64,000 nucleotides of DNA, taken from assembly GCA_963702895.1 (NCBI GenBank), contig OY969767.1, forward strand, positions 1,120,001 to 1,184,000. The letters are read 5' to 3'. Shown in pieces: positions 5,548 to 6,788 of this stretch; position 1 is the first letter of the stretch, and the number at the start of each line of letters is the position of its first letter. The stretch is from an uncultured Elusimicrobia bacterium (lineage in GTDB: Bacteria; Elusimicrobiota; Elusimicrobia; 2-01-FULL-59-12). The position numbers and the translations under genes are program-made. The notes beneath the pieces are model-generated. The model ran no database searches. It had not been told where the DNA came from and was given only the letters and a program-made list of their open reading frames with translations.

Positions 5548-5562
5548 TGTATGTCAAAATTC

Positions 5563-5706
5563 TTCTGAAGGTAGTAGACCGTCCTACCCTAGGCCCGGTG
5601 TTCGCCGAGACTGTGGAGAGCAAGGTCGCTACGTTCAGAATGCGGTTAAGCCCGAACAGTTGCCGGAGCCGCGCCAGCCGCGAGCTCGGATGATGCAAGG
5701 TCGGGC
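5563..5706 (+). ncRNA. IS110 bridge RNA (target-binding and donor-binding loops)
   Basis: Stem ttctgaa..gtag..gacc / ggtc..ctac..ttcagaa (5563-5640) encloses TCCTACCCT and GGAGAG; stem gcccga/tcgggc (5650-5706) encloses ACAGTTGC and ATGCAAG, which match the junction ACAGTTG-CT-TGTAT. Confidence 0.85.
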
Positions 5707-5728
5707 TGTACTGAATAAGAGGCCAATC

Positions 5729-6682
5729 ATGTCTGAAGAAATCTGGGCGGGAGTTGATATTTCGAAAGCACTATTGGAAACGGCAGTTGTGCCAGGCGGC
5801 CAACGTTGGCGGACCGCAAACAACCGGCTTGGAATTCGGCAGATCGTGCGTCGTTTGGCGACGATGCAAGTCGCCGGCGTAGTGATTGAAGCCACGGGCG
5901 GTTGGGAAAGACCACTGGTTAAGGCCTTGAACAAGGCGAGGATAGCGACTTCGGTGATCAATCCGCGACAGGGGCGCGATTTTGCGAAAGCCACAGGGCG
6001 CTTGGCTAAGACCGATGAGATCGACGCCGGTGTGTTGGCCGATTTTGGTCAGAAACTCAAACCCCCAGCGCGACCACTGGCCGATGATCTGACCTTAGCG
6101 CTGCAGGAGCTGATGAATCGTCGACGAGATTTGGTGGAAATGTTGGTCCAGGAGCGCAACCGTCGGCAGCATGTGTCGGTCGCGATGAAGACTAAGATTG
6201 AACAGCACATCGCGTGGCTAGAAGAGCAACTGGATGAACTTGATGATCAGATCGATAAGGGACTGGGGGACCACCCTGATTTGAGTCAAAAACGGGATAC
6301 GCTTCGCAGCGTCCCTGGGGTTGGCCCGGTCTTGGGGCGGACCCTCGTCGCGGAACTCCCCGAGCTTGGGAAATTGAACCGACGCCAGATTGCTAGCCTG
6401 GTGGGCGTGGCCCCTCTAAACTGGGATAGCGGTGTCATGCGGGGAACTCGGCATATATGGGGAGGGCGCTCCAGTGTGCGCTCGGCACTTTACATGGGAG
6501 TTTTGACAGCCATCCGCATCAACCCTGTGATCAAAAAGTTCTATCAACACTTGATTGCCAATGGGAAAAAAACCAAAGTCGCGCTGACAGCATGCATGCG
6601 TAAACTTCTGATTATTTTGAACACCATGGTCAGAACCAACACCCATTGGCATTGTGCAGTTCTGGAGGTTTCGCATGCCTAA
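5729..6682 (+). CDS. IS110 family recombinase/transposase (DEDD RuvC-like + Tnp domain)
   Basis: GVDISK, IEATG, KTDEIDA (DEDD), SVPGVG, WDSG, RSALYM, ACMRKL; AGAGG RBS before ATG 5729. Confidence 0.95.
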
Positions 6683-6788
6683 AAGACCCCTATTGACAAC
6701 ACAGTTGCTCTCCCGCCTCACGGCGGGAGAGGGGACAAGAAAGTGCGGCCGATTCAGACGGCAGGACCTCGCCAACGGAAGATTGGGG

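Follow-up and report, generated by a model that had tools for sequence, protein, structure and literature searches.

The window, i.e. the whole stretch of 64,000 nucleotides of an uncultured Elusimicrobia bacterium that was analyzed, carries an insertion sequence of the IS110 group on its forward strand (Table 1). The element is placed between convergent genes. The neighboring regions (3043-5372 and 6789-7780) encode a Cache-HAMP-GGDEF diguanylate cyclase, an NlpC/P60 protein, a DUF6941 protein, and a protein with a weak Metal_resist/LTXXQ match. Counting a single CT core, the element comprises 1162 bp. Its left end of 181 nt (5548-5728) and its right end of 27 nt correspond to the layout of the IS110 group, in which the RNA is encoded in the left end.

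Three copies of the element, located at 130281, 181130, and 1125548, were found in the genome (2.72 Mb, single contig), with no differences among them. All are flanked by one kind of repeat, yet the flanks differ at 14 to 18 of about 100 positions and the element terminates at identical bases in each of them. Hence, the repeats had diverged before the element arrived. An empty site was present in contigs of two sequencing runs from two studies. In these contigs position 5545 is joined to 6708 and exactly 1162 bases are skipped, with 2 letters assignable to both sides. Taken together, the empty allele and the three copies with identical termini fix the element ends and the CT core without recourse to a model. 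A contig of a third run (X1) spans 5548-5824 without any difference within the element, although X1, with a depth of 3.9, may be the source sample.

Insertion was scarless at a short core and without long terminal inverted repeats, as is typical of the IS110 group: CT is found on both sides of the element and once in the empty allele. The IS1111 traits, i.e. sub-terminal inverted repeats of 7-17 bp and an RNA in a long right end, were absent from the element ends, which share about 3 bp in register and include the short right end. Besides these 3 bp, an inverted hexamer of 6 bp sits one base out of register at the ends. An initial annotation of this DNA had proposed an IS110 element with readable ends, a donor ACAGTTG-CT-TGTAT formed by joining these ends, and a target CCTAACC-CT-CTCCC restored by excision. 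Every string it quoted was found at its coordinates, and the three copies and the empty allele, in which one CT is restored, bear out this delimitation.

Table 1. Features of the IS110-group element and its insertion site (positions in the window).
Feature	Position	Strand	Basis and remarks
Inverted BoxC/triplex-motif-like repeat (CCG linker type), empty, upstream of element	5462..5506	+	Pattern from PMC4666352
Left part of interrupted BoxC-like repeat (TAA linker type)	5530..5547	+	Repeat pattern
Left target (positions 1-7) and CT core	5539..5547	+	Left target 5539-5545, CT 5546-5547; copies and empty allele
Element	5548..6709	+	IS110-group insertion sequence; 3 identical copies, empty allele in two runs
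Right donor	5548..5552	+	Five bases; common to 53 of 57 relatives at positions 10-12, other 4 differ at position 11 with matching guide change
Predicted extended -10 box (TG, one base, CAAAAT), circle-junction promoter	5552..5560	+	In-silico junction, 4/6 to consensus
Target-binding loop	5563..5640	+	Outer stem, left guide, inner hairpin, right guide; landmarks A5576/G5581 and A5608/G5613; fold, alignment, pair counts
Left target guide, probably 8 nt	5583..5590	+	4/6 non-core matches at this copy
Right target guide	5615..5620	+	6/6 to core plus positions 10-13 at all three copies
Target-loop handshake guide CA	5621..5622	+	Complementary to donor positions 6-7; first base C in 57/57 relatives
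Donor-binding loop	5649..5707	+	Landmarks A5649/G5654 and A5683/G5688; fold, alignment, pair counts
Left donor guide	5656..5663	+	8/8 to donor positions 1-8; changes with donor in ISMno7 and more distant relatives
Right donor guide, probably split	5690..5699	+	5690-5691 and 5695-5699 around 3-nt bulge; one G:T wobble
Donor-loop handshake guide GT	5700..5701	+	G5700 pairs with target position 7
IS110 recombinase, 317 aa	5729..6682	+	D10, E54, D96, D99, S234, wedge Y255/M256/L259
Predicted -35 box TTGACA, circle-junction promoter	6693..6698	+	In-silico junction
Left donor and CT core	6701..6709	+	Left donor 6701-6707, CT 6708-6709
Right target (positions 10-14)	6710..6714	+	Copies and empty allele
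Right part of interrupted repeat (GC-rich hairpin)	6710..6736	+	Repeat pattern

The recombinase gene starts with an ATG at 5729, and a Shine-Dalgarno-like AAGAGG is located at 5717-5722. A longer frame of 340 aa starting from TTG 5660 was rejected: it crosses the donor loop, while the ATG has the Shine-Dalgarno-like site and fits the starts of the homologues. The protein matches PF01548 (70.5 bits, cut-off 29), PF02371 (63.8 bits, cut-off 21.3), and the NCBIfam model NF033542 "IS110 family RNA-guided transposase" (204 bits, cut-off 140). Residues 6-300 align to the solved proteins of IS621 (8wt6, E 9e-42) and ISCro4 (E about 1e-41). In the IS621 alignment D10, E54, D96, and D99 correspond to D11, E60, D102, and D105, S234 corresponds to S241, and the wedge residues Y255/M256/L259 to Y264/M265/M268. 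The serine is invariant in 71 sequences. Among 8000 candidate proteins scored, of which 7720 passed E 1e-60, the two closest were 68% identical and all others 56% or less.

DNA searches in 10 other genomes of the family (completeness 73-98%) revealed no close relatives. Of 400 further genomes in the phylum 6 gave a protein match (35-53%), while phage records searched at E 1e-40 gave none. A second IS110-family element is present in the same genome in five copies (G000:C1 near 90683, 152686, 446227, 505532, and 1715616). Its protein is 25% identical with an intact DEDD-like N-terminus, its ends are different, and its flanks also look like repeats.

For comparative analyses, relatives were gathered from genomes, metagenomes, and viral contigs, keeping the best 80 of 594 confirmed stretches from the metagenome scan. 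A near-complete ORF was present at 117 loci, 3 of which represent the present element. Removal of 23 loci lacking the left-donor-guide motif or upstream DNA left 94, and removal of 24 further loci lacking a junction left 70 with both junctions. After 2 loci without a parsable target loop, 4 with misparsed or doubtful junctions (L124, L087, L075, and L061), and 6 duplicates were also dropped, the final alignment contained 58 sequences: the present element and 57 relatives at 42-54% protein identity.

Folding of the left end resulted in two internal-loop hairpins (-68.6 kcal/mol, z -2.58), and 3 of 200 shuffled sequences folded as well. The segment 5567-5713 alone still folds into both loops. 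Thus, the two stem-loops previously assigned to a non-coding end of 180 nt were recovered, in a segment that is 181 nt long. Across the alignment the four helices are 93.9% paired and two-sided changes occur in 20 of 25 pairs; none of 500 shuffles scored as high, and slid controls reached 35-49%. The donor loop is the most conserved stretch of the RNA alignment. The landmark of IS621-type bridge RNAs, a conserved A followed five bases later by a G, is present at all four places. A search of Rfam over 5300-6900 with E-values up to 1 gave no match, which has no bearing against the RNA reading.

Several features set this RNA apart from those of its relatives. The distance of 35 from the core to the target loop is among the four shortest of the 58 sequences. 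Both inner hairpins (5594-5607 and 5668-5682) are longer than in most relatives, the G landmarks of the target loop are 32 bases apart compared to about 25, and the inner stem of this loop contains a mismatch. The consensus of close IS621 orthologues comprises three stem-loops, the first one located ahead of the target loop. This 5' stem-loop was absent here from the 15 bases between core and outer stem, which contain the predicted -10 box. In IS621, removing the 5' stem-loop was described to lower activity only slightly. RNAalifold proposed an additional helix between the two donor guides across the clade. Its pairs are invariant and show no covariation, and it was excluded from the structure count. 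In the free RNA 5660-5663 of the left donor guide are able to pair with 5695-5698 of the right donor guide, because a G occupies the wobble position. Such a helix could shut the donor loop until DNA is bound.

A promoter-like site arises only on the in-silico circle junction. It matches 10 of 12 positions overall with a spacer of 18 nt, and a promoter search on the linear element found none. The imperfect predicted -10 box and the 18-nt spacer count against an RNA-guided element of the IS621 type. Junction promoters have been demonstrated for IS621 and ISPpu10. No circle-type joint was found among the contigs examined, which span little of the element, and no RNA data set containing the element was listed among public runs. 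The -35 hexamer and its exact inverse (5552-5557) flank the donor one base out of register, making the junction nearly palindromic.

The four guides named in the initial annotation, TCCTACCCT (5582-5590), GGAGAG (5615-5620), ACAGTTGC (5656-5663), and ATGCAAG (5693-5699), were all located, but two required new boundaries. For the left target guide the position stood and the length of 9 nt did not: the positions of the conserved A...G landmarks make T5582 a probable linker, which leaves probably 8 nt for the guide. For the right donor guide the part 5695-5699 was retained. In 53 of 58 sequences an AT precedes the last five guide bases at a distance of 2 or 3 bases, whereas in 7 of 58 an AT directly adjoins them, on which count a contiguous guide was rejected. 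Together with the split guide of IS621, these frequencies indicate that the distal part is likely AT 5690-5691 rather than 5693-5694. Relatives with a G at donor position 13 (L073 and L080) have AC as distal right-guide pair.

Strong support for the guide assignments came from the relatives. In 54 of them the right target guide fits the target of its own element at 4.57 of 5 non-core positions on average, compared to 1.65 for shuffled partners with a best of 2.19 in 5000 shuffles. Respective values for the left target guide are 4.85 of 6 (52 relatives), 2.73, and a best of 3.29 in 3000 shuffles, scoring the best of three registers for real and shuffled partners alike. Between the handshake base following the right donor guide and target position 7, 53 of 55 relatives show a Watson-Crick pair, compared to 38.8 in shuffles and 48 in the best of 20000. 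Since relatives share ancestry and are not independent, the shuffles overstate significance and yield no exact probabilities, but the gaps are still wide. All 57 relatives have a C, which matches donor position 7, as handshake base following the right target guide. No covariation in the relatives was found for the second handshake base. Handshake guides have been defined and their behavior predicted in PMC11208158; by analogy with wild-type IS621, CA at 5621-5622 together with G5700 is an insertion-favoring pattern. Thus, the folding and covariance analysis across homologs that had been suggested as a check showed stems, target guides, and a handshake base covarying far above shuffles in the 57 relatives. 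Together with protein families, catalytic residues, and fold, this supports the earlier claim that the element encodes an intact bridge recombinase of the IS621 type and that its left end harbors the target and donor loops.

In contrast, the claim that the element has its own donor specificity did not hold. The donor is a trait of the clade: of 114 relatives with near-complete ORF, 91 carry the motif of the left donor guide, and the supplement of PMC11208160 (Supplementary Data 1-2) contains the 14-base donor 424 times in file 5 and at least 188 times in file 4. On the right side all four changes at donor position 11 are compensated in the guide. On the left side ISMno7 of Methylobacterium nodulans (name from the record annotation) shares the RNA scaffold, the right donor, the core, and a recombinase of 46% identity, but two of its left-donor bases are changed along with their two counterparts in the left donor guide, and its target is another one. 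Left-guide changes matching the donor also occur in distant relatives. As the relatives were filtered on the left-donor motif, this donor-guide covariation is based on few independent cases.

These data also bear on the seekRNA model, in which a shorter processed piece of the target loop would be the working RNA and the donor-matching loop would have another role. For ISEc21, also of the IS110 group, an RNA of 74 nt was reported as the abundant transposase-bound species and a form of 58 nt as sufficient (PMC11187229). For the present element this model is very unlikely: no part of the alignment is more conserved than the donor loop, whose guides vary together with the donor and whose handshake base follows the target.

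The present element has a weak left and a short right target guide. From the G landmark to the handshake bases the right guide segment comprises 7 nt, compared to 8 nt in 56 of 57 relatives; three relatives inserted in BoxC-like repeats have one extra G in this segment. The same letters are found in all three copies and in the X1 contig, and the short segment is therefore probably still functional. A homopolymer error was rejected as explanation, since the X1 contig, possibly derived from the source sample at low depth, shows no difference. The left guide matches 6 of 8 positions at this copy and 5 of 8 at one other copy. It mispairs at position 4 in two copies and forms a wobble in the third, while that position is matched in 90% of the relatives. 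Among relatives the four core-proximal positions match in 90-96%, the two distal ones in 63% and 52%, and 16 of 52 relatives match at 4 or fewer positions, like the present element. The low mismatch tolerance described for IS621 counts against a guided mode of insertion at these sites.

The target is a repeat with three blocks. The empty site has a TTA-type linker and forms a head-to-head pair with a copy of the CCG type, an arrangement also known from E. coli. A relaxed pattern found 32 such motifs with three blocks and TTA- or CCG-type linkers in the genome after in-silico removal of the element. This resembles the BoxC/PIT/TM(ECO) triplex-motif repeat (PMC4666352, Table 1), which likewise shows three 9-nt blocks, TTA- and CCG-type linkers, tandem inverted pairs, and a mostly intergenic location. 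However, the first loop comprises 9-10 nt in all 32 motifs instead of the 3-6 nt of BoxC/TM(ECO), and one variant has a linker of 4 nt. Due to the longer first loop we refer to the target as BoxC-like. Intrastrand triplex formation was reported in PMC4666352 in vitro and for E. coli motifs only.

Both TAA-linker copies and one of four TTCA copies are occupied by the element. The CCG-type partner repeats mispair at position 5 and are all empty: this position is A at all three occupied sites and G in the empty inverted partners. The target repeat also occurs at least 33 times in file 4 of the PMC11208160 supplement, where it is used by other IS110 elements. At least 5 relatives (L051, L052, L076, L108, and L112) target BoxC-like repeats with differing guides. 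Within this clade many palindromic repeat families serve as targets for one and the same donor (L019, L020, L041, L045, L048, L050, L066, L070, L090, L107, L110, and others). None of the papers listed in literature searches links the names BoxC or DUF559 with IS110. A single DUF559 (PF04480) gene was found in the genome (G000:C1 1904956-1905273, minus strand; L146). It is flanked by the BoxC-like repeat, with three tandem copies at its 3'-end and a hairpin upstream. By analogy with RAYT and REP, this gene may encode a repeat-associated nuclease.

Guide pairing alone does not rank the insertion sites. A full right match is found at 2035 genome sites. At 12 of these the left guide pairs at 7 of 8 positions, and all 12 are empty, while the occupied sites match at 6, 6, and 5 of 8. 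One possible explanation is that the shortened target loop reads the full 14-bp site with one DNA base bulged, which would bring the left guide to 8 of 8. Indeed, only 3 of the 2035 sites reach 8 of 8 in this way and two of them are occupied, but the third copy keeps a mismatch. As a habit of the clade the bulge was rejected, since it restored a full match in none of 16 low-matching relatives. The accounts of the IS621 target duplex available to us describe no bulge either, and we consider this explanation improbable for the present element.

The three occupied sites all lie in weaker-matching repeats that belong to inverted pairs. This raises the possibility that DNA structure, i.e. an inverted partner upstream forming a long hairpin, cruciform, or triplex, gates the choice among guide-matching sites in addition to RNA pairing. 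Among 55 sites with a core-proximal match the occupied ones rank 3, 5, and 6 for the stability of the upstream hairpin (rank-sum 41 of 26235, post hoc). Seven sites without partner that pair at all nine left positions, counting wobbles, are empty. In the relatives upstream flanks fold well (z below -2) in 14 of 47 cases compared to 4 of 38 distal controls, a moderate enrichment, and as a precedent a stem-loop at the target has been proposed to gate insertion of ISPpu10 (10.64898/2026.03.19.712850). However, only three sites are occupied. Within the repeat family 3 of 6 copies with partner and 0 of 8 without are occupied (p = 20/364 = 0.055 by hand arithmetic), a comparison that is confounded; restricted to intergenic copies the numbers are 3 of 5 and 0 of 3 (p = 0.18). 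All 33 non-repeat sites are located within crude ORF calls, and selection thus explains why they are empty. Furthermore, an upstream arm within 70 bases was seen by eye in only 1 of 5 relatives inserted in the same kind of repeat. Gating by DNA structure is thus conceivable but rather doubtful. Somewhat less likely still is the more specific proposal that the contracted target loop, with its right guide one base short, works and that the structure of the tandem inverted BoxC-like pair offsets the weak left guide.

Alternatively, the target loop may be decaying or only half used, with movement driven mostly by the donor loop through half-matched or donor-donor insertion, or the copies may have been homogenized by gene conversion. 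The short right segment, the mismatch in the inner stem, and the poor left match would fit such a decay. Donor-only excision and half-match insertion have been reported for IS621 (10.64898/2026.08.31.748434) and donor-donor insertion for IS622. Against this, all three sites match the right guide at 6 of 6 positions as well as the core-proximal left guide, none is donor-like, and diverged repeats were filled at the same base, one of them with a natural empty allele. We therefore consider this alternative highly improbable.

Overall, the element is very probably an autonomous, recently active member of the IS110 group that works like IS621. The following scheme combines the observed ends, core, repeated site-specific insertion, intact active site, conserved fold, and covarying guides with a circle, junction promoter, RNA, tetramer, and strand exchange as described for IS621, ISPpu10, and ISEc21. 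The ends would be joined in a circle, bringing the -35 box of the right end to the -10 box of the left end. By analogy with IS621 and ISPpu10, this would drive an RNA of about 145 nt (roughly 5567-5713), which would lack the 5' stem-loop. One recombinase dimer would carry the target loop, which would pair left of the core with the bottom strand and right of it with the top strand, and a second dimer would carry the donor loop on the circle junction, yielding a tetramer with one dimer per loop. S234 would cleave after CT, followed by serine-linked strand exchange. Insertion would be favored by the handshake bases, with CA pairing to the incoming donor and G to the incoming target. The target loop would be tuned to the BoxC/triplex-motif-like repeat, being strict near the core (three bases left, four right) and tolerant to distal mismatches on the left. 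Exit of the element may occur by cut-out or copy-out, both discussed in 10.64898/2026.08.31.748434 and PMC13626964.

Among the closest known systems are IS621 and ISCro4 (IS622) (PMC11208160, PMC11208158; PDB 8wt6, 9t56). Common to these and the present element are the DEDD RuvC domain and Tnp serine, the RNA in a long left end, the CT core, the order of target loop and donor loop, and the A...G landmarks five bases apart at four places. In the IS621 structure these correspond to a flipped A and a syn G five bases later, likewise at four places (A43/G48 and A67/G72 in the target loop). The split right donor guide, the insertion-favoring handshake, and a palindromic repeat as target are also shared. 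The present element differs in its distant protein (147 bits), another left donor, a left target guide of 8 nt, a right guide segment shorter by one base, no room for the 5' stem-loop, and a BoxC-like target instead of the E. coli REP.

Like ISPpu10 of Pseudomonas putida (10.64898/2026.03.19.712850), according to its description, the element belongs to the IS110 group and uses a repeat target with an upstream stem; the junction promoter of ISPpu10 would have its counterpart in the one predicted here. A left target guide of six positions is also shared, and its tolerance of distal mismatches, shown by experiments for ISPpu10, is likely here as well. The stem of ISPpu10 of about 5 bp lies within the repeat, in contrast to a stem that would measure 11-13 bp or more here, formed with a second repeat about 25 bases away. 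A close likeness is also found in the unnamed IS110 clade with ACAGTTG as left donor (PMC11208160), which also shares the RNA scaffold and, at least 554 times, the donor-loop motif. Four strings specific to the present element were not found in the searchable part of this supplement, whose alignments contain gaps. The 14-base donor was not found together with IS110 in the main texts of papers, as far as these were accessible, and is present in the supplements of PMC11208160. Since mechanism, donor, and target repeat are thus already contained in the data of 2024, the orthologue is, judged by its sequence, a fresh example and represents no new mechanism.

Its usefulness lies in practice: with 1162 bp and 317 aa it is compact, and it is recently active and far from IS621. 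As its ends are confirmed by an empty allele, it could be used directly in a screen of orthologues. Furthermore, two design questions could be addressed with it as a natural test case, namely the minimum length of the right target guide and whether target DNA structure overrides the guide match. Naming the target BoxC-like ties an unexplained repeat to RNA-guided insertion. If the offset of a weak guide by DNA structure proved true, site choice would be a two-key lock of RNA pairing and a cruciform or triplex. In that case the instability that has been reported for BoxC/triplex motifs would in part be due to IS110 insertion guided by RNA.
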